Virus record (IMG/VR): IMGVR_UViG_2529292836_000011
Span: 1-24,486 of that record
Length of the DNA stretch: 24,486 bases
Reading direction: 5' to 3' (one strand)
Source of the DNA: a virus
Lineage: Duplodnaviria; Heunggongvirae; Uroviricota; Caudoviricetes
The notes beneath the pieces were generated by a model that had not been told where the DNA came from, did not search any database, and saw only the letters and a list, made by a program, of their open reading frames with translations. The position numbers and the translations under genes are program-made. This document shows positions 1,775 through 18,632 of this stretch, piece after piece; positions within the stretch are counted from its first letter, which is position 1; each line of letters starts with the position of its first letter.

Positions 1775-2017
1775 ATGGCAGAGATTATTCCCATGACTGA
1801 AGAACAGAAATTCCAGTTAGAGATTTACAAGCTGGTCATGAACCAGAACGCAGCAGCAGAGGAAGCATTTCAGTTCATTGGCACTGACGAGCTGAAGCTT
1901 GAGCTATTCAAAATTCACTTCCAGTCAGGCGGCGCTAATTCAGATATCACGACCCGCACTATCGAAGCGGTGCGTAAATCGAAGGAAGCGTTAGACCTGT
2001 TCACTACCGGAGCATAA
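1775..2017 (+). CDS. Hypothetical small phage protein upstream of the terminase
   Basis: 80-aa ORF whose stop lies directly before the small terminase start. Confidence 0.5.
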   Translation: MAEIIPMTEEQKFQLEIYKLVMNQNAAAEEAFQFIGTDELKLELFKIHFQSGGANSDITTRTIEAVRKSKEALDLFTTGA

Positions 2018-2019
2018 AC

Positions 2020-2460
2020 ATGGCGCGCCCAACAAAGTATCAAGAGGCGTATGCCGAACAGGCACGCAAACTGTGCTTGCTGGGCTATACAGACGCAGAA
2101 CTTGCTGATTTCTTTGAAGTCAGTGAGTCAACTATTAACAAGTGGAAGCTTGATTATCCTAAGTTTTCGGAGTCCATAAAAAAGGGTAAGGCCGTCGCTG
2201 ATGCAGAAGTTAGTGACCGTCTTTATCAACGCGCTATGGGCTTCGTGGCTCCAGACATCGATATTCGTGTTATTGAAAACAGAATTGTCGAAACTCCGCT
2301 TGAGAAGTATTACCCGCCTGATACAACCGCTGCCATCTTCTGGCTTAAGAACCGACAGAAGGATAAATGGCGCGACAAGGTTGATCACGAGCTAACAGGC
2401 AAAGACGGCGGCGCAATCCAGATTGAAACATCACCGATGAGCACTCTATTCGGAAAATGA
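2020..2460 (+). CDS. Terminase small subunit
   Basis: N-terminal HTH-like motif (PTKYQEAYAEQARKLCLLGYTDAELADFFEVSESTINKWK) typical of small terminases. Its stop overlaps the large terminase start (ATGA). Confidence 0.85.
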   Translation: MARPTKYQEAYAEQARKLCLLGYTDAELADFFEVSESTINKWKLDYPKFSESIKKGKAVADAEVSDRLYQRAMGFVAPDIDIRVIENRIVETPLEKYYPPDTTAAIFWLKNRQKDKWRDKVDHELTGKDGGAIQIETSPMSTLFGK

Positions 2461-3872
2461 CCTCGATTAATCCTATCTTTGAACCGTTCATTGAGGCGCA
2501 TCGCTACAAAGTCGCCAAAGGCGGTCGAGGGAGCGGTAAATCATGGGCAATTGCGAGACTGCTTGTTGAAGCGGCGCGTCGGCAGCCAGTGCGTATTCTC
2601 TGTGCTCGTGAACTGCAAAACAGTATCAGCGATTCGGTAATCCGGTTGCTTGAAGACACCATAGAGCGGGAAGGGTATTCGGCTGAGTTTGAAATTCAGC
2701 GTTCAATGATTCGTCATCTCGGAACGAATGCTGAATTCATGTTCTACGGCATCAAAAACAACCCGACGAAGATTAAATCGCTAGAAGGCATTGATATTTG
2801 CTGGGTGGAAGAAGCGGAAGCGGTAACGAAGGAATCGTGGGATATCCTGATCCCAACCATCCGTAAGCCGTTCTCTGAAATATGGGTGAGCTTTAACCCG
2901 AAGAACATCCTCGACGATACCTATCAGCGATTCGTTGTAAATCCTCCCGATGATATTTGTCTGCTGACGGTGAACTACACCGACAACCCGCACTTTCCTG
3001 AAGTTCTCCGTCTGGAGATGGAAGAGTGCAAACGCAGAAATCCGACACTGTATCGTCACATCTGGCTTGGTGAGCCAGTAAGCGCAAGTGATATGGCAAT
3101 CATCAAACGTGAATGGCTTGAAGCCGCAACCGATGCGCACAAGAAACTCGGATGGAAAGCGAAAGGCGCTGTTGTCTCTGCGCATGACCCGTCAGATACA
3201 GGGCCGGATGCTAAAGGTTATGCATCGCGTCACGGTTCGGTTGTTAAGTGCATTGCCGAAGGTCTGCTGATGGACATCAATGAAGGTGCTGACTGGGCAA
3301 CTTCGCTGGCGATTGAAGACGGTGCTGACCATTACCTGTGGGATGGTGATGGTGTTGGTGCGGGTCTACGCAGACAGACAACGGAAGCGTTCTCCGGCAA
3401 GAAAATCACCGCCACGATGTTCAAGGGCAGCGAATCGCCATTCGATGAAGATGCGCCATATCAGGCCGGAGCATGGGCTGATGAAGTCGTACAGGGCGAC
3501 AACGTTCGCACTATTGGCGATGTGTTCCGCAATAAGCGAGCGCAATTCTATTACGCGCTGGCTGACAGGCTGTATCTGACATATCGGGCGGTTGTCTACG
3601 GTGAGTATGCAGACCCTGACGACATGCTGAGTTTCGACAAAGAAGCGATAGGCGAGAAGATGCTGGAGAAGTTGTTTGCAGAACTGACGCAGATTCAGCG
3701 CAAATTCAATAACAACGGGAAGCTGGAGCTAATGACTAAGGTCGAAATGAAGCAGAAGCTCGGTATTCCATCTCCTAACCTGGCTGATGCGCTGATGATG
3801 TGTATGCATTGCCCGGAGTCGGCTGCGCAACCCGACTATTCCAGTTACTCAATTCCTTGTGGTGTAGGTTGA
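2457..3872 (+). CDS. Terminase large subunit (PBSX/Sf6 gp2-type)
   Basis: Walker A P-loop KGGRGSGKS near the N-terminus, a C-terminal nuclease-like region, 471 aa, located between small terminase and portal. Confidence 0.93.
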   Translation: MTSINPIFEPFIEAHRYKVAKGGRGSGKSWAIARLLVEAARRQPVRILCARELQNSISDSVIRLLEDTIEREGYSAEFEIQRSMIRHLGTNAEFMFYGIKNNPTKIKSLEGIDICWVEEAEAVTKESWDILIPTIRKPFSEIWVSFNPKNILDDTYQRFVVNPPDDICLLTVNYTDNPHFPEVLRLEMEECKRRNPTLYRHIWLGEPVSASDMAIIKREWLEAATDAHKKLGWKAKGAVVSAHDPSDTGPDAKGYASRHGSVVKCIAEGLLMDINEGADWATSLAIEDGADHYLWDGDGVGAGLRRQTTEAFSGKKITATMFKGSESPFDEDAPYQAGAWADEVVQGDNVRTIGDVFRNKRAQFYYALADRLYLTYRAVVYGEYADPDDMLSFDKEAIGEKMLEKLFAELTQIQRKFNNNGKLELMTKVEMKQKLGIPSPNLADALMMCMHCPESAAQPDYSSYSIPCGVG

Positions 3873-3873
3873 T

Positions 3874-6072
3874 ATGGCAGAAAAAAAGATGGCTGACTGG
3901 CATCGCAAGGTGCTGTGCAACTTTGATAATGCCTGGTCAGCAACGCAGGATATGCGTGAGCAGATTATTGAGGCTCAACGTTTCGTCCGGGTGTCCGGCG
4001 CACAGTGGGAAGGCAGCACAAACGCTGGTTACTCATTTGATGAAGGCAGGTTTGAGCATTACCCGCGCTTTGAACTGAATAAGATTTCCCGTGAATGTGA
4101 TCGCATCATTGGCGAGTATCGACAGAATCGCATCAGCGTTAAATTCAGGCCGAAGGACGATAAGGCATCGGAAGCGTTAGCCGAAAAGATGAACGGCAAA
4201 TTCCGCGCTGACTATCAGGAAACATCCGGTGGCGAAGCGTGTGATAACGCATTTGATGATGCTGTAACAGGCGGATTCGGTTGTTTCCGCATGTGTGCCG
4301 ATTACGAAGATGAAATGGACCCAAGTAACGAGCAGCGACGCATCAGCCTTCTTCCTGTTTACGACCCGGCGACATGCGTCTTCTTCGATCAGGACAGCAA
4401 GCAATATGACCGCTCTGATGCTATGTGGGCTATGGAAATGTTCTCCATGACGCCCAAAGCGTTCGAGGCTGAATACCCTGATTCCACCGCGGCAAGCCTT
4501 TCTCGTGATGACACTGGCACTCAATATGACTGGTCAACGCCCGATGCCATCTATGTTGGACGCTACTACGAAGTTCGCATAGAGAAGGTGAAGCTCACGG
4601 CGTGGCGCAACCCTGTTAGCGGAGAAACGGCAATCTATGATGAAGAGCAAATCAAAGATATTGTCGACGAGCTAACCGATGGCGCATTCGAACTGATTGG
4701 CGAGCGGACAGTGAAGAAACGCCGAGTTTATTGCGGTCTTCTTTCTGGCGCTGAATGGCTGGAAGAACCGAAGCGTATTCCTGGCGAACATATTCCTCTC
4801 ATCCCGGTATATGGGCGTCGCTCATTTGTTGATAATCAGGAGCGAATCGAAGGCCACGCTGCAAAAGCGATGGATGCACAGCGTCTTGAGAACCTGATGG
4901 TTTCCATGATTGCAGATAACGCTACTCAGGCTGGCGGTGATGGCATTCCTATCGTGGATGTTGATTTCATTCCCGGTCCATTAATGAATCACTGGGCAGA
5001 GAGGAATAAGAAAAGACCTGCAGTTCTTCCCATGACCAGCAAGAAGGACAAAAACGGAACGGTCATTTCAGAGGCTCAGGTTGCTGGCTGGACACCTCCG
5101 ACACAAATGCCTCCTGCTCTTGCCGGGCTATTGCAGTACACCGGAACGGCTATTCAGCAAATTACAGGTGCGTCGCAGCTTGAGAACATGCCGAGCAACG
5201 TCGCCACCGATACCGTTGATAGCATTTTTAACCGGATGGACACGCAGTCCTATATCTACATGGACAACATGGCTAAATCCATGCGTCGCGCTGGCGTTGT
5301 GTGGCTTTCTATGGCGCGTGAGGTCTATGGAAGTGATACGCCGATGCGTATCGTTAATGAGGACGGCAGCGATGACGTGGCGCTGATGACTGGTGAAGTG
5401 GTTGACCGTCAGACAGGGCAGGTTATCGCTCTTAACAACCTTTCGCAGGGTAACTATGAAGTGACTGTCGATGTTGGTCAGTCGTTCGCTACTCGCCGTG
5501 ATGCAACGGTTAAGTCGTTACTTTCCATGCTGGCACTTATCCCACCGGGAACGCCGAAGCATGACCTTGTATCGTCTCTTATTCTCGACAATATGGACGG
5601 CGAAGGGATGGAAGACCTGAAAGAATACAACCGCAATCAGTTGCTTCTGTCTGGAGTTATCAAGCCGAGAACACCAGAAGAACAGCAGATGGTTGAGCAG
5701 GCGAAACAACAACAGGCCAGTCAGCCGGATCCGGCTATGGTTGCAGCGCAAGGTCAGCTTCTGGCTGGTCAGGCTGAATTGCAGAAAGCGCAGAACGAAC
5801 AGGCAGCCATTCAGGTTAAAGCATTCCAGGCACAGACTGATGCTCAGGTTGCTGCGGCAAATGTTGTGAAAATCCTCGCATCTGCCGATAGTCAGCAGAA
5901 ATCTGATATCCGCGAGGCTCTGAAACTGCTCGGACAGTTCCAGCAACAGCAAGGAGACAATGCCCGTGCTGATGCAGAGCTTGTCCTGAAGAGTCAGGCG
6001 CAGGGCCATGCGCAGCGCATGGACATCAACAGCATCCTGCAAAAATCAACTCAGCAACAACCACAGCAGTAA
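3874..6072 (+). CDS. Portal protein (P22 gp1-like)
   Basis: 732 aa with blocks matching the recalled P22 gp1 sequence (RRRVY, GEHIP.PV.G, PEEQQ...QQ..DPAMV.AQG.LL.GQAEL.KAQN) and a Gln-rich C-terminal barrel region. Confidence 0.93.
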   Translation: MAEKKMADWHRKVLCNFDNAWSATQDMREQIIEAQRFVRVSGAQWEGSTNAGYSFDEGRFEHYPRFELNKISRECDRIIGEYRQNRISVKFRPKDDKASEALAEKMNGKFRADYQETSGGEACDNAFDDAVTGGFGCFRMCADYEDEMDPSNEQRRISLLPVYDPATCVFFDQDSKQYDRSDAMWAMEMFSMTPKAFEAEYPDSTAASLSRDDTGTQYDWSTPDAIYVGRYYEVRIEKVKLTAWRNPVSGETAIYDEEQIKDIVDELTDGAFELIGERTVKKRRVYCGLLSGAEWLEEPKRIPGEHIPLIPVYGRRSFVDNQERIEGHAAKAMDAQRLENLMVSMIADNATQAGGDGIPIVDVDFIPGPLMNHWAERNKKRPAVLPMTSKKDKNGTVISEAQVAGWTPPTQMPPALAGLLQYTGTAIQQITGASQLENMPSNVATDTVDSIFNRMDTQSYIYMDNMAKSMRRAGVVWLSMAREVYGSDTPMRIVNEDGSDDVALMTGEVVDRQTGQVIALNNLSQGNYEVTVDVGQSFATRRDATVKSLLSMLALIPPGTPKHDLVSSLILDNMDGEGMEDLKEYNRNQLLLSGVIKPRTPEEQQMVEQAKQQQASQPDPAMVAAQGQLLAGQAELQKAQNEQAAIQVKAFQAQTDAQVAAANVVKILASADSQQKSDIREALKLLGQFQQQQGDNARADAELVLKSQAQGHAQRMDINSILQKSTQQQPQQ

Positions 6073-13747: not shown

Positions 13748-15759
13748 TGAAAGTAACTGCAAATGGTAAGACATTTACCTTTCCTGATGGTACGAGCACG
13801 GAAGATATTGGGTCCGCCATTGATGAGTATTTTGCTGGTCAGTCAGCGCCAACACAACAAGGTGTTCAGCAATCGCCAGCAGACAACTCACTTGCATCAG
13901 GATATGCACAGCTTGCCACTCAGCAGAAGGAAGGACTAGATCGCTCTGCTGAGCAAGGGGCTGTTTTAGGTGCTGCAATGCGCGATGCCGTTACCGGTGA
14001 AAGCCGAATGACACCAGAAATGGAGAGACTGCAAAATGTTGGGGCTGCCCCTGAGTTGAACTCACTAAGCATGGATGCCCTGAAGGCTGGATGGTCTCAA
14101 CTTTTCGGCTCCGACGCGTCTCAGGAAAAGATTCTTCAGAGTATGGGGGCGAAATTAAGGCAGGATGAGAAGGGTAACACTATCGTTTCCCTGCCATCCG
14201 GTGATTATGCCCTGAACAAGCCAGGTTTATCACCGCAAGACCTGACTTCGTTTCTTGCTAATGCGTTAGCGTTCACACCAGCGGGCAGGGCTGGAACGGT
14301 GCTTGGTGCCATAGGGAAATCAGCTGCTACAGATTTAGCACTACAGGGTGGCACCAGCCTTGCTGGCGGAGAAGATATTGATCCTGCACAAACGGTAATT
14401 TCTGCTGGCATTGGTGGTGTTGGCAAGGGGCTGGAAAATACAGTTAGTGCGGTTTCCAGGGCTGTTCGCGGTGAGATGTCACCGGAAGCAAAGGCTGCTG
14501 TCGATTTTGCGTCGGAAAGAAACCTGCCGTTAATGACCAGTGACACGCTGAAAGATAAAACCTTTATGCAGAGTCAGGCTCAGACATTAGGCGAAAGAGT
14601 TCCTTTTTTTGGAACCGGTAAGAATCGGCTGAATCAACAACAAGCACGAGAAAATTTAGTCAGAACATTTAGCGATGGTCTGGGTGGCATTTCTGATAAA
14701 CAGCTTTATGAATCTGCGACTAAAGGGCAACAAAAATTCATTGAGGCAGCAGGAAAGCGATATAACCGCATAATTGACGCTATGGGGGATACCCCTGTCG
14801 ATCTCTCAAACACGGTAAAAGCTATCGACAATCAGATTGCCGTGTTAAGCCGCCCGGGCAAATCTCAGGATAGAGCCGCGGTAAAAGTCTTGCAGCAATT
14901 TAAAGACGATATCACCAGCGGACCCAATGACCTGCGTCTGGCGAGAGAAAACAGAACTGACCTTCGAAAGCGGTTCATGAATTCAAACGAGACTGTTGAT
15001 AAAGACACGCTCCAGAAAGCCAGCGATATTGTCTACAAGGCATATACAGCGGATATGAAAAAAGCAGTATCCCAAAAACTAGGCTCAGAAGAAGCTGCCA
15101 ATATGTCTAGGGTTGATCGCTCATGGGCTAGATTCAATGACATGATGGGAAGAACGCGCGTTCAAAAGGCAATAGCCAGCGGCAAGGCTACACCTGAGGA
15201 TGTAACAAAACTCGTTTTTAGCCAAAACCCATCAGAACGTTCTCAGCTTTACAGGCTTCTGGATGACAATGGTAGGCAAAACGCACGAGCAGCCATAGTT
15301 CAGAATGCTGTAGATAAGGCGACTGATCCGTCTGGAAATATTAGTGTTGAAAAGTTTATTAATGCGTTACACCGGAACAGGAAGCAATCAGCAACTTTCT
15401 TTAAAGGCGTACATGGAAAGGAACTGGACGGCGTTATTAAATACCTCAACGATACAAGACACGCGGCAAAAGCGAACGTTCAAAACTTAAATGGTCAGCA
15501 GCTTTATGGATTGTTAGTTGGTGGTGGCATCATAAACGCAGCAGTATTAGCGGGGATGCTAAAAACGGCTGCGTTTGTTGTTCCTGCTGCTGGTGTCGTA
15601 GGAGGAGCTGCGAAGGCATACGAAAGCCCTGTTATACGAAATGCCTTGTTACGTCTGGCAAATACGCCAAAAGGTAGCACAGCATATGACAGAGCGATCA
15701 GTACGGTCACACAATCGCTCACCAGAGTCGCACAGGCATCACAAAAAGAAGCTCAATAA
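13744..15759 (+). CDS. Ejection protein, gp16-like
   Basis: 671 aa in the gp16 position, ATGA overlap with the upstream gene, hydrophobic Gly-rich segment near the C-terminus. Confidence 0.7.
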
Positions 15760-15776
15760 CTGGCAGCCACGGATGG

Positions 15777-16127
15777 CTAATTTTTATTCTTTGATCTCGT
15801 CCACAGGTAAAGAAGAGCAATGGCAAGACAGGAAACAGAGAATAGATAACCTACCTCATATGGTGCGCCAAAAAAATTAGCTATTGATACGGGCAAAAAA
15901 GCCGAAGCGATCAGAATTGAAAGGCAAAAAATAAGCCCAGTAACATAGTTTATTAAACTCTTAAATGAGAAACGTTTTGCTTGATTTACGGTCTCAGCGA
16001 GTGATCGCTTAACGATGGATAAAAGAAAATAGATGGCGACAGTAGCTAATGCCCCTTTCCACCAGTCTGGATATAGTTTTGCGACAATCAGCCCAAGGAA
16101 AACCATGATGACAGACTGAGCATTCAC
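15777..16127 (-). CDS. Small multi-pass inner-membrane protein (possible superinfection-exclusion moron)
   Basis: About 117 aa from a GTG preceded by AAGGAGG (5-nt spacer), with three to four hydrophobic helices. AT-rich. The ORF-track start at 16202 adds a non-hydrophobic extension. Convergent with the gp16-like gene. Confidence 0.55.
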   Translation of the reverse strand: MNAQSVIMVFLGLIVAKLYPDWWKGALATVAIYFLLSIVKRSLAETVNQAKRFSFKSLINYVTGLIFCLSILIASAFLPVSIANFFGAPYEVGYLFSVSCLAIALLYLWTRSKNKN

Positions 16128-16192
16128 ACCAACCTCCTTAGTTTTGCTCAGGATACCAGATGATAATGTGTAGTTGGAGTAGCGCGGTTGTA

Positions 16193-16282
16193 ATGCAAGC
16201 ATTTTGTTTTGGTTTTATGCTTGCTTGTATGTGTGTACAGTGTATATAATGCAAGCATACATCACAATAAAGGTGCTTGCAT
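16193..16282 (+). promoter_or_regulatory. Divergent promoter region with two copies of a palindromic operator (half-site ATGCAAGCAT, 14-bp spacer)
   Basis: ATGCAAGCAT at 16193-16202 pairs with inverted ATGCTTGC at 16217-16224. ATGCAAGCAT at 16249-16258 pairs with GTGCTTGCAT at 16273-16282. A TATAAT at 16245-16250 overlaps the second operator. Confidence 0.5.
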
Positions 16283-16283
16283 T

Positions 16284-17276
16284 ATGACTGAAAAGAAAAG
16301 TGGCGAAGGGAAAGCTAAGGGCGGTATCGCTCGCGCAAAGTCGCTGACTAAAGAGCAGCGTTCTGAAATAGCAAAGAAAGCAGCGGCTGCAAGATGGAAG
16401 GATAAACCATTAATTGCTACGCATAAGGGATCGTTCCAGCATGAATTCGGGATTGATGTTGAGTGCTATGTGTTAAATGATGATAACAAAACTGCCGTTA
16501 TTAGCCAGAGAGGCATGGGAGAAGCGATTGGTCTTGGCGAAGGTGGCAGCAGGTTGCCAAAGTTTATTCAGGGGAAAACTATTTCTCAGTATATCGGGCA
16601 TGAATTAAGGGCAAAACTTGAAAATCCTCTTATTTTTCAATACAAACAGGCGGGCACGAACACTCCAGCTAATCCTGTAATACATGGCTACGATGTAACA
16701 ATATTAATTGATTTATGTCGAGCAATCTCTAATGCTAAAGCTGAAGGTAAGTTGCTTTCCAGTCAGGAAGGGATTGCTAAGCAAGCCAGAATCATTATTG
16801 ATGCATCAGCCAAGGCGGGCATTCAGGGGCTTGTTTATGCTTTGGCAGGGTATGACAGAACAAAAGAAGAGGTAATTCAAGCATATAAGCGATATGTTGC
16901 TGAAGAGGCTCGTGAGTATGAAAGAGAGTTCACCCCTGAACTTTATGAGCATTGGTATCGTCTGTATGGTATAGACAAACCAGTTAGAGGGCGACCATGG
17001 GCGTTTAAATATCTTACGATAGATCACATTTATTACCCATTAGCCAGAAGTGAAGGAAAGGTATTTAATTTAGCAAAAACGTCAAAAGAAGAAAAAGGCA
17101 GCAAAAACGATAAAATACACCAGTTTTTATCAGAGGTTGGAGTTAAGGCTCTTAGAACCCAAATAGGTAAGGTTACTGGTATTGCAATGGTTTCTGATAC
17201 TCGAGAAGAGTATGAGAAATACATAGATGAAAAGGTTATTGGACAAAGAACCATAGACTTAAAAGATAAAGAATAA
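16284..17276 (+). CDS. Hypothetical 331-aa protein with a basic N-terminal tail (possibly P63C-domain / anti-repressor-like family)
   Basis: ATG at 16284 preceded by AAAGGTG. N-terminal KGGIARAKSLTKEQRSEIAKKAAAARW motif. Followed by a strong terminator. The ORF-track start at 16209 would run through the promoter and operators. Family assignment is tentative. Confidence 0.7.
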   Translation: MTEKKSGEGKAKGGIARAKSLTKEQRSEIAKKAAAARWKDKPLIATHKGSFQHEFGIDVECYVLNDDNKTAVISQRGMGEAIGLGEGGSRLPKFIQGKTISQYIGHELRAKLENPLIFQYKQAGTNTPANPVIHGYDVTILIDLCRAISNAKAEGKLLSSQEGIAKQARIIIDASAKAGIQGLVYALAGYDRTKEEVIQAYKRYVAEEAREYEREFTPELYEHWYRLYGIDKPVRGRPWAFKYLTIDHIYYPLARSEGKVFNLAKTSKEEKGSKNDKIHQFLSEVGVKALRTQIGKVTGIAMVSDTREEYEKYIDEKVIGQRTIDLKDKE

Positions 17277-17282
17277 GAAAAT

Positions 17283-17304
17283 CCCACCGTCAGGTGGGTT
17301 TTTT
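17283..17304 (+). terminator. Rho-independent terminator (CCCACC-GTCA-GGTGGG then TTTTTT)
   Basis: Perfect 6-bp GC-rich stem with a T6 run, directly after the 16284-17276 gene; an A-run upstream makes it potentially bidirectional. Confidence 0.7.
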
Positions 17305-17317
17305 ATAAGGAGTAATC

Positions 17318-17503
17318 ATGACCATAGAAGAACGTCTGAACAACATTGAGTTGAATCAAACCCTGCTTGACCAGCGACTTTCAGATCTTGAGCTTAAAGA
17401 TCTAGATGTGCAAATATCAGAAGCAGAAGCCAAGCTCTCCAGCTTAAACCACCGCAGGAAGCAAATCCGCGACAGAATTACTCGTGGACGCGGAGGCTGT
17501 TAA
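17318..17503 (+). CDS. Hypothetical small coiled-coil protein
   Basis: 61 aa, with AGGAG 7 nt upstream of the ATG. Heptad-like Leu/Glu pattern and a basic C-terminus (RRKQIRDRITRGRGGC). Confidence 0.5.
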   Translation: MTIEERLNNIELNQTLLDQRLSDLELKDLDVQISEAEAKLSSLNHRRKQIRDRITRGRGGC

Positions 17504-17580: not shown

Positions 17581-18117
17581 TCAAACAACCCACCAGTTTG
17601 CCTGATTGGATACCAGCCTTGCAGTTTTTATGGAATTAATTATGCCATGCTCAAGAGCCTTGTTAGCATCCAAAATGGTCGAGTCTGCTATCAGGGATGC
17701 CCACCTAATATGGGTTCCGATGTCGATATTGAACGTCTCAACGAAGCGATCAAGATCGTTATCGAGGCATTTCCCGTACTCTCTCAATCTGGCATGGTCG
17801 GCGGCTGGGGAGGCAAAGCACCATAATAGAGGATGTAACAGGAATCTTGATAATGGGTTTGCGAAACGTTCTGAGCCAGCCAGGAAAACGATATTAGCTA
17901 TGGATTCAACATTGCTTATGTTGTGAGTTCTAACGGTAACAGGGAGTGACTTAAGAAAGTTATACGCAGTAAAGCCAGCGGCAGTTTCCCCTCCCTGACT
18001 TGATATATGGATATTTAATTCAGTTGCGCCTTGAGATAATGCGGTGAGACAGTGGTTCTGAAGTTGCCCAACAGTGGCAGTGTTAACGGGGCATAAGAAA
18101 TGAATTGTGTGCAGCAT
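17581..18117 (-). CDS. ClpP-like (peptidase S14-fold) protein, N-terminally truncated; translationally coupled to mnt
   Basis: Ungapped match to the recalled ClpP core from the GG motif to the active-site Ser (ISSQGG for INSPGG; VESIAN for AASMGA). His-box RFANPLSRFLLHP for RFCLPNSRVMIHQP. The Asp position reads GIINSI for GLVDSI. Its ATG overlaps the mnt stop (TAATG). Confidence 0.5.
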   Translation of the reverse strand: MLHTIHFLCPVNTATVGQLQNHCLTALSQGATELNIHISSQGGETAAGFTAYNFLKSLPVTVRTHNISNVESIANIVFLAGSERFANPLSRFLLHPLLWCFASPAADHARLREYGKCLDNDLDRFVETFNIDIGTHIRWASLIADSTILDANKALEHGIINSIKTARLVSNQANWWVV

Positions 18118-18365
18118 TATTTTTCATCCTTACCATACATGGTCTTTAGCGTCTCAAGCAGCGCCTCTTTGAATTTGTCAGCTTCTTGCTGAGCAAATGA
18201 CTCAACTGACTTTGGCGACCTATCTTCATCAATCGCGGCTTGCAAAATCATGACGATCTCGGAGTTAACAGAGCGACCATTTTTTGATGCTCTGACAGCA
18301 AGAGCCTCGCGTAAAGATTCAGGGATTCTTACCGTAGTTGGAGAAATTGACACACCCTTTGCCAT
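18117..18365 (-). CDS. mnt: Mnt-like ribbon-helix-helix repressor
   Basis: 82 aa from the ATG at 18365 (AAGGTG upstream). RASKNGRSVNSEIVMILQAAI matches the Arc/Mnt signature (recalled P22 Mnt: RAEANGRSMNSELLQIVQDAL); C-terminus TLKTMYGK versus TLKDLYKK. Confidence 0.8.
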   Translation of the reverse strand: MAKGVSISPTTVRIPESLREALAVRASKNGRSVNSEIVMILQAAIDEDRSPKSVESFAQQEADKFKEALLETLKTMYGKDEK

Positions 18366-18479
18366 ATCACACCTTTGGTATTCAATTTGATAGCAAAGTG
18401 TATGCAAAAAAATTTTGACTAGATATACTCACTTTGATATCTTTTGTATTCGAAAAGAGTTGTTTGCGTGGAGGGTAAC
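18366..18479 (+). promoter_or_regulatory. Divergent mnt/arc promoter-operator region (immI-like)
   Basis: AT-rich 114-bp gap between divergent RHH repressor genes, containing TTGACT and TATACT/TATCTT-like hexamers. By analogy to P22 Pmnt/Pant; the operators were not mapped. Confidence 0.45.
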
Positions 18480-18632
18480 ATGGAGAAAGAAATAAGTAAG
18501 ATTTTGGTAAGGATGCCGCAGTCGTTAAAGGATGCTATCGGTAGCAGGGCAAAGGAAGAGTGCAGGTCGTTTAACTCAGAGGTTATCAAGCGCCTGATAG
18601 ACAGCCTGAAGAGAGAGGGGGTAACGGTGTGA
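18480..18632 (+). CDS. arc: Arc-like ribbon-helix-helix repressor
   Basis: 50 aa from the ATG at 18480 (GGAGGG upstream). VRMPQSLKDAIGSRAKEECRSFNSEVIKRLIDSLKREG parallels recalled P22 Arc (...NGRSVNSEIYQRVMESFKKEG). Confidence 0.8.
   Translation: MEKEISKILVRMPQSLKDAIGSRAKEECRSFNSEVIKRLIDSLKREGVTV

Follow-up and report, generated by a model that had tools for sequence, protein, structure and literature searches.

The stretch analysed here (the window) comprises 24,486 nt of the IMG/VR virus record IMGVR_UViG_2529292836_000011 and is part of a P22-like prophage of Escherichia coli. In this window we identified an array of four short repeats (16193–16282) directly upstream of a gene encoding a 330-residue P63C-domain protein (16284–17276, plus strand), which is also our candidate for an autoregulator acting through these repeats. 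The domain assignment is based on Pfam PF10546 (E = 1.2e-8; score 35.9 bits, curated cut-off 26.1), and the gene falls into PHROG 2384, a group of unknown function (E = 4.5e-103). An identical P63C protein is on record from E. coli. The transcription unit is closed by an intrinsic terminator, CCCACCGTCAGGTGGG followed by a T-run (17283–17304, plus strand; terminator call at 17283–17298).

The region from 16180 to 16290 reads gtaATGCAAGCATtttgttttggttttATGCTTGCTTgtatgtgtgtacagtgtatataATGCAAGCATacatcacaataaagGTGCTTGCATtATG. A pattern search allowing one mismatch located copies of the ten-mer ATGCAAGCAT at 16193, 16217, 16249 and 16273, in the orientations + - + -. Site 1 (16193–16202, plus strand) is an exact copy with its core GCAAGCAT at 16195–16202; it lies upstream of the -35 element and has an equivalent in homologous arrays. 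Site 2 (16217–16226, minus strand) is ATGCTTGCTT (ATGCTTGCtT, one mismatch to the reverse-complement consensus) and holds the -35 hexamer TTGCTT (16221–16226). Site 3 (16249–16258, plus strand) is again exact and covers the predicted transcription start, and site 4 (16273–16282, minus strand), GTGCTTGCAT (gTGCTTGCAT, one mismatch), is positioned between the ribosome-binding site and the ATG. Both reading and search thus bear out the layout proposed in a first-pass annotation of this DNA, namely four half-sites forming two inverted pairs with 14-bp spacers, the pairs starting 56 bp apart, although only two of its four half-sites are exact and the other two carry one mismatch each. The 34 bp that it gave as palindrome length is too short for the second pair, which is a perfect inverted repeat over 12 of 12 positions (ATAATGCAAGCA at 16246–16257 against TGCTTGCATTAT at 16274–16285). 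The same annotation had the pairs flanking a TATAAT; this hexamer (16245–16250) does lie between them, but its last two bases are the first two of site 3. Its further observation that the downstream pair overlaps both the -10 hexamer and the ribosome-binding region is correct, as the Shine-Dalgarno sequence AAGGTG (16270–16275), read at the 3' end of the second-pair spacer, overlaps site 4.

The four repeats are real and non-random. The whole window contains five matches to ATGCAAGCAT at up to one mismatch, against 3.5 expected, and four of the five fall within 90 bp, where the window-wide chance density predicts 0.013 (Poisson P for at least four matches ~1e-9, or ~3e-7 when all 90-bp windows are allowed for). 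The fifth match, at 16875 inside the P63C gene, is the only further one that this window-wide search returned and corresponds to chance level. Another short sequence, TAGTTTTGC, occurs twice in the region 16073–16147 (at 16074 and 16139, 65 bp apart) with a third, partial copy at 16203 in the spacer of the first pair; this recurrence is probably due to chance.

The predicted promoter of the P63C gene appears to be built into the array, with site 2 supplying the -35 element, site 3 lying over the start, site 4 occupying the short 5' untranslated region (UTR) and site 1 situated upstream of the -35. The -10 hexamer TATAAT follows TTGCTT after 18 nt, and from its position we infer a transcription start at about 16256–16259. 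Alignment of 32 related arrays on site 3 yielded a common layout, consisting of TTGCAT within site 2, a gap of 17 nt and a -10 box with the composition T22 A27 t a A20 T28, which has a fixed position and ends in bases 1–2 of site 3. The window fits this family layout, with its -35 inside site 2 and its -10 ending in the first two bases of site 3. Purine-rich runs of the GGAG or AAGG type are found in the related arrays at the place equivalent to the Shine-Dalgarno sequence. The ATG of the window gene, at 16284, is one base beyond site 4, and in every relative inspected the last site, in either orientation, has its end at a position from -2 to +1 relative to the start codon. The junctions read GCATG, GCATATG or GCATTATG, the AT often being shared with the ATG. 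Sites placed on the -35, on the start and in the 5' UTR are those expected for repression via occlusion of RNA polymerase and of promoter escape.

The array, in its sequence and in its geometry relative to promoter and start codon, is conserved together with the P63C gene across at least ten phyla. We collected 80 genomic loci on contigs representing one genome per species, chosen by similarity of the protein (26–68% identity) and not by the motif. These loci span Beta-, Gamma- and Alphaproteobacteria, Myxococcota, Acidobacteriota, Actinobacteriota (including a Mycobacterium), Chloroflexota, Planctomycetota, Nitrospirota, Verrucomicrobiota, Gemmatimonadota and one cyanobacterium. At least two ten-mers with up to one mismatch were present within 215 bp upstream of the gene in 43 of the 80 loci, and at least one in 55, whereas the other 482,557 bp of these loci contained 37, about the number expected by chance. 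A complementary view came from viral contigs ascertained by the motif, where at least three good ten-mers within 130 bp adjoin a P63C gene in 14 of 16 cases, a count that takes in one contig whose P63C gene is cut by the contig end. A scan of the viral contigs for the inverted core returned many chance matches. Looser clusters of the 8-mer at genes other than P63C, of which we inspected 14 of 33 in viral contigs, were coding, of low quality and look like chance, with the exception of locus L016. There, ATGCAAGCATTTTCTTTTGTTTGTTGCTTGCAT (5385–5490) resembles the first pair of the window including its spacer and is followed by no P63C gene, possibly as a relic of cargo replacement.

For the shape of the individual site we scanned 72 arrays, that is, the window and 71 loci whose P63C protein carries the N-terminal motif described below (the ARW motif), and collected 271 sites at up to one mismatch to the 8-mer core. 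At least three core sites were present in 62 of the 72 arrays and at least four in 51. Positions 3–10 of the ten-mer (GCAAGCAT) are conserved at 85–100% in the 271 sites, a figure partly built in by the site selection, whereas positions 1 and 2 (A and T) reach only 42% and 60%, and flanks and spacers vary freely. Some clades use the variant sites CTAAGCAT or TCAAGCAT. The conserved unit is accordingly the asymmetric 8-mer GCAAGCAT, and the near-palindromic look of the ten-mer (ATGC..GCAT) arises partly from its neighbours. Among four-site arrays the orders + - + - and + - + + are equally represented (n = 12 each), so that site 4 is a direct repeat in 12 of 24. The spacing of + - pairs is mostly 20–25 bp but also 10 and 27–30 bp; 31 bp is the usual distance from site 2 to site 3; and the second spacer measures 13, 14 or 15 bp even among enterobacterial copies. 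This variability of spacing and orientation argues against the rigid palindromic operator of a symmetric dimer.

Within the enterobacterial prophages, the sites change more slowly than their surroundings. Comparison of 21 distinct upstream sequences from E. coli and Salmonella prophage relatives over 16193–16283 identified 2 variable columns among the 40 site columns against 15 among the other 51 (Fisher p = 0.003). Both site changes occur in single sequences, site 1 is invariant in all 21, and the one indel is located in a spacer. The homologue in Salmonella phage ST104 (orf23) is only 34% identical to the window protein and occupies a different slot, behind cI and the cI terminator. Upstream of it, the same four sites are arranged as ATGCAAGCAC-N14-ATGCTTGCTT-N22-ATGCAAGCAC-N15-GTGCTTGCAT-A-ATG, whereas its spacers show no alignment to the window spacers.

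The P63C domain is named, according to database source annotations, for the C-terminus of the Myxococcus phage Mx8 protein p63, and we found 2766 clusters of P63C homologues at E <= 1e-5. The most conserved stretch of the family alignment is an N-terminal motif with the consensus KGGxARAxxLxxxxRxEIAxKAAxARW. In the window protein it corresponds to KAKGGIARAKSLTKEQRSEIAKKAAAARW (residues 11–38, encoded at 16314–16397, plus strand) and is the proposed reader of the sites; the protein matches the motif profile with E = 1.2e-16, the sole match in the window. The motif was modelled as two helices (residues 10–20 and 23–39) with modest confidence. The middle region of the protein has no Pfam match at E <= 10, PADLOC returned no match to the protein, and no structural relative was found. 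We proposed the motif as reading head because its presence tracks that of the sites: none of the eight homologues lacking it has sites, whereas at least one ten-mer is present in 54 of the 71 that carry it (Fisher p = 4e-5). Three of these eight have an N-terminus of the GRKGGEKTAKRG..YYAEIQA type, and one an apparent helix-turn-helix (HTH), as judged by eye.

Outside P63C, the ARW motif was found only in a small partner protein, described below, and in one HTH-motif protein, which makes for a weak test in separating motif from protein. Two loci deserve mention in connection with the motif. The HTH-motif protein is that of L280 (2243–2640), where a 119-codon frame (~112 residues from the first ATG) combines an N-terminus that looks HTH-like by eye with a C-terminal ARW motif. 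Directly behind this frame comes TTGACAaAGCATatATGCTTgctTTATAA, which resembles a promoter and has an AAGCAT/ATGCTT pair between its hexamers. In L239 (2456–2760), an allele common to five viral contigs, the P63C gene is interrupted immediately past the ARW motif, leaving a motif-only open reading frame (ORF) of 40 residues behind an intact first operator pair; the ORF downstream begins MKKRFSDEQIISILREAEAG, which we take to be the start of an IS3-family transposase. Our search of the literature on the P63C domain and phages retrieved no functional study, and the motif sequence appeared in papers only within primers and the like.

Many relatives of the window cassette are located in transposons resembling the insertion sequence (IS) IS1. 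These elements contain a DDE transposase gene of ~290 codons, a divergent P63C gene and in most cases a small gene, and their terminal inverted repeat is a conserved 19-mer, GGTAGTG(N2)TCAGTTTGAA, situated upstream of the small gene. Both ends are present in 25 loci and delimit units of 1.9–3.9 kb (one locus has two nested left-end candidates, giving 3.9 or 5.1 kb). In all 24 loci for which both flanks are available, the element is bordered by target-site duplications of 8 bp that match perfectly (GACTTAAG, TCCAATTG and TTGAATCG are examples). The ends are of the GGnnnTG type, as in the IS1 family, and the transposase matches the NCBIfam model transpos_IS1 with E = 6e-16, below the curated cut-off, which identifies it as a distant member of that family. 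Elements with P63C come from many phyla (L152 at 1978–4385, L127, L128, L140, L143, L146, L154 and L166; further examples include L175, L176, L183, L185, L186, L190 and others). The space that separates the transposase gene from the P63C gene is taken up by the GCAAGCAT array, and a pair ATGCTT...AAGCAT overlaps the TTGACA and CATAAT of the transposase promoter. The transposase start codon follows the -10 by 6–7 nt, which suggests a leaderless message. Cargo-carrying IS1-like elements of such kind were not described in the literature that we searched.

The small gene encodes a protein of 75–95 residues in which a motif-profile search detected the same motif (GGxARA...AAAARW) at the C-terminal end. 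Its N-terminus reads MPKRSSK..DLNQLAK.IVDEATGE or MPKGPKGEKRPADVIGNA..., and it has no Pfam or NCBIfam match. In most of ~30 loci the gene lies directly downstream of P63C in convergent orientation, and in four it is on the same strand. Examples of the small gene are found in L152 (4067–4318), L166 (4052–4318) and L040 (1426–1668), all on the minus strand, and in the metagenome loci L284–L363. Among 80 metagenomic loci chosen by the small protein, a P63C gene is present in nine, and in 47 none was detected despite at least 1.1 kb of flank after the small gene. Many of these loci carry an IS1-like transposase gene, the terminal repeat or both. As the small protein is common without P63C, it looks like a core part of the element, with P63C as one of several cargoes, and it may act as a regulator of the IS1-like elements.

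The E. coli window contains no match to the element end GGTAGTGnnTCAGTTTGAA at up to four mismatches, no transposase and no small gene. P63C is instead neighboured by a membrane-protein gene and a ClpP-like gene, and the cassette stands alone there. Its left boundary is a mosaic joint at 16125–16164. E. coli genomes match either 15760–16164, with the membrane-protein gene and no P63C, or 16125–16700, with the P63C cassette; none matches both, and no single E. coli match covers at least 80% of the query 15760–16700. This split places the array with the P63C cassette, apart from the membrane-protein gene to its left. The corresponding slot of E. coli ATCC 11775 (L364, 2848–4116) contains a hypothetical gene and a YafO-family toxin gene instead, from which we conclude that the slot between the membrane-protein and ClpP-like genes (16107–17304 in the window) is a cargo position or hotspot. 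Promoter, operators, gene and terminator together form a self-contained "moron" that moves as a cassette between prophage slots.

To the left of the slot are two ejection-protein genes, which end at 15759, and the small membrane-protein gene (15777–16106, minus strand, with the start taken from RefSeq annotation of related genomes). To the right, an ORF of 61 codons (17318–17503, plus strand; PHROG 7586, unknown function, E = 1e-43) lies between the P63C terminator and the ClpP-like gene. Its product has, by eye, the look of a coiled coil; it is absent in E. coli MS 21-1, where the ClpP-like gene begins ~50 bp after the P63C gene. The ClpP-like serine-protease gene (17581–18117, minus strand; Pfam CLP_protease, E = 2e-11; a head-maturation protease according to PHROG) abuts the gene for an Mnt-like ribbon-helix-helix (RHH) repressor of the immI region (18117–18365, minus strand), base 18117 belonging to both frames, and the two appear to be co-transcribed. 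A ClpP-like gene is an unusual partner for an immunity repressor; the pairing is conserved in other E. coli prophages. The Arc-like gene (18480–18632) comes next, followed by the genes for the Ant antirepressor and the tailspike.

Based on their conservation, their footprint-like pattern of variation and their position on the promoter, the four sites are very probably protein-binding control sites of the P63C promoter. We propose, with a probability that we put at roughly 0.6, that P63C itself binds these sites as the operators of its own promoter and represses it. Bound protein would exclude RNA polymerase and shut the promoter off, and the prophage would make a low, buffered amount of P63C protein. 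Binding would most likely occur through the N-terminal two-helix motif, with the protein acting as an oligomer with flexibly tethered DNA-reading heads; that this motif is the reader we consider slightly less than an even bet. Besides co-occurring with the sites in the P63C family, the motif is tied to them by the small partner protein, in whose elements such pairs lie on the transposase promoter, and by the HTH-motif protein of L280 with the pair in the promoter-like sequence behind it. The first-pass annotation had suggested a dimeric-repressor operator controlling divergent promoters and had left the repressor unnamed. The operator part of this suggestion fits a conserved, footprint-like array lying on a promoter, but an asymmetric 8-mer with variable spacing and orientation does not make a rigid 34-bp dimer palindrome. 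A leftward promoter was not detectable in the window (with site 1 as -35 the best -10 candidate is AACTAC, and the promoter scanner found none), and the mosaic joint gives the array to the rightward P63C gene, whose product, encoded by the sole gene that always accompanies the array, is now the candidate repressor.

Several observations weigh against autorepression through the N-terminal motif. The -35 hexamer TTGCTT is weak (three of six positions match), and a simple promoter scanner made no promoter call. About 10 of the 72 motif-bearing loci have fewer than three core sites, and some of these use variants such as CTAAGCAT. The N-terminal motif was modelled with a predicted local distance difference test (pLDDT) score of only 50–71, and the first 49 residues have no Pfam or NCBIfam match at E <= 10 and no sequence-profile match in the PDB. 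The homologues without the motif are among the most divergent, so the correlation of motif with sites is partly phylogenetic. The beta-rich middle domain of P63C could be the reader instead, and the function of the sites could be activation, or a DNA transaction of another kind, in place of repression.

The last of these possibilities would have P63C bind the sites for another purpose, such as autoactivation, DNA recognition in the service of its main activity (transposon regulation or target marking, for instance) or the exclusion of incoming DNA that bears the sites. In its favour, P63C genes are carried as cargo by IS1-like transposons, with the array lying between transposase and P63C, prophage slots of this kind are used by toxin or defence cargo (the YafO-family toxin and the adjacent hypothetical gene of ATCC 11775), and a protein of 330 residues in three regions is far larger than a plain repressor needs to be. 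We nevertheless regard such a purpose as improbable, since sites lying on the -35, over the start and in the 5' UTR suit repression and not activation, the protein has no match to known defence families, and the motif is found nowhere in the window beyond its own promoter, the chance-level match at 16875 apart. A different regulator might be imagined at these operators, be it one of the prophage's own RHH proteins (Mnt-like or Arc-like), some other phage repressor or a transcription factor of the host. The array does lie in the immI region, 1.8 kb from the mnt-like and arc-like genes, and palindromic operators are typical of repressors of the Mnt/Arc type. However, the array moves with P63C into contexts without mnt or arc, including the slot after cI in ST104, positions beside tRNA genes and the 2–4-kb IS1-like elements, and P63C is the only gene found with the array in all of them. 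This makes the Mnt-like and Arc-like proteins unlikely binders. A host factor, for its part, would need to be specific for one and the same 8-mer throughout at least ten phyla, and the motif occurs at chance frequency outside P63C upstream regions. We therefore give a regulator other than P63C little credence.

A role for the inverted repeats as RNA hairpins, the second sequestering the ribosome-binding site and start codon and the first serving as attenuator or terminator, was weighed by folding. If fully transcribed, 16243–16292 forms a 14-bp stem (-16.4 kcal/mol, z = -4.2) whose foot holds the AUG and whose junction with the loop holds the Shine-Dalgarno sequence. The 108-nt region as a whole then folds at z = -6.7, and one difference between arms is wobble-compatible (the G of site 4 faces a T in the window, hence U.G, and a C in ST104, hence C-G). 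Yet the -10 ends inside site 3, so a transcript starting at about 16256–16259 should lack the 5' arm, and a leader from ~16257 has no significant structure (-2.1 kcal/mol, z = +0.7). The first hairpin is not significant (z = -1.3), its loop measures 14 nt and a U-run is missing; nor was any terminator called at 16193–16282. Moreover, the arms keep their sequence instead of co-varying, the site 2 mismatch (16225) is uncompensated, and the direct-repeat orientation of the last site in half of the four-site arrays would leave A.A mismatches within the stem. Taken together, these results make hairpins a very unlikely explanation. In eight related loci, Rfam at gathering thresholds found nothing besides a tRNA. 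About as improbable as the hairpins, or marginally more so, is that the repeats are reiterated promoter elements, with TTGCAT as a -35-like hexamer on both strands, or functionless transposon relics. Each site has TTGCAT on one strand, site 2 does serve as the -35, the IS-borne transposase promoter overlaps ATGCTTGACA and AAGCATAAT, such that part of the motif doubles as hexamers, and the cassette probably derives from IS-borne elements. But sites 3 and 4, which come after the -10 and so can have no -35 role, are conserved like site 2; the bases beyond the hexamer (the GC of GCAAGCAT) are equally invariant; and purifying selection on the sites is visible in prophages of E. coli and Salmonella in which a transposase is absent. 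P63C-mediated repression of its own promoter thus remains our preferred account.

Autorepression through promoter operators is a known kind of mechanism, and several characterised systems offer points of comparison. In the immI region of P22, operators are bound by the RHH repressors Mnt and Arc. The window array likewise lies in an immI region with mnt-like, arc-like and ant genes and presents short repeated sites over a promoter, as for a small phage-encoded repressor. It differs in being 1.8 kb away from the mnt-arc intergenic region (~18366–18479), with the P63C and ClpP-like genes between, in being co-inherited with P63C and not with mnt/arc, and in comprising four asymmetric 8–10-bp sites at 20–25-bp spacing in place of one compact palindrome, with a candidate binder that has no RHH domain. 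Closer in arrangement are lambda cI at OR and autorepressed toxin-antitoxin operons, in which several site copies cover the -35, the -10 or start and the leader, the regulated gene encodes the presumed binder, and expression from the prophage would be homeostatic and low. By contrast, orientation and spacing of the P63C sites are not fixed, the last site overlaps the start codon, and the proposed P63C head is an undescribed motif of ~30 residues and not an HTH or RHH domain. InsA of IS1 is a small IS-encoded repressor of transposase transcription that binds the terminal inverted repeats via a zinc-finger/HTH region. The resemblance here is that the array and the small motif protein of the relatives occur in IS1-family-like elements, with AAGCAT-type pairs over the transposase promoter. 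Unlike the InsA sites, those of the P63C elements are internal and unrelated to the ends (GGTAGTGnnTCAGTTTGAA), the protein motif is different, and the E. coli window has no ends, transposase or small protein. BstA, an abortive-infection protein of prophages, has its gene behind that of the repressor in the P22-like phage BTP1, with a DNA element inside the gene that gives self-immunity. It shares with P63C the kind of slot (after cI, as for ST104 orf23) and the combination of a large accessory gene, a predicted DNA-binding N-terminal part and a cis DNA element, but we detected no sequence relationship (no PADLOC match), and the P63C sites are on the promoter whereas the BstA element is inside the gene. 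Finally, a preprint on Tn3-family transposons describes toxin-antitoxin cargo between divergent promoters (bioRxiv 10.1101/848275). The likeness consists in an accessory gene placed in the transposon regulatory core beside the transposase promoter, with regulation likely shared, and the difference in another transposon family and an uncharacterised P63C cargo, for which no toxin or antitoxin homology was found.

New here are the site itself, the motif that is the candidate for reading it, the loose grammar of site arrangement, the persistence of the array across phyla and the link to IS1-like transposons, through which an accessory gene of an E. coli prophage is connected to cargo-carrying elements with the same sites between transposase and cargo. 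A short DNA word attached to one gene family over at least ten phyla is unusual for bacterial operators. We also advance, as a tentative and on present evidence rather doubtful extension, that the ~30-residue ARW motif may be an undescribed portable module for sequence-specific reading of (G/T/C)(C/T)AAGCAT, common to P63C and the small protein of the IS1-like transposons, and that the E. coli cassette may be a captured part of a transposon control circuit. If the motif were such a new DNA-binding module, it would add to the minimal DNA readers and aid the annotation of small "hypothetical" proteins of mobile elements. P63C could then read sites on incoming transposons or phages, resulting in cross-regulation or exclusion between mobile elements and not simply in self-repression. 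For the thousands of P63C-domain proteins in phages, prophages and transposons, the array provides a first concrete, testable handle in the form of a site, a candidate motif and a promoter.

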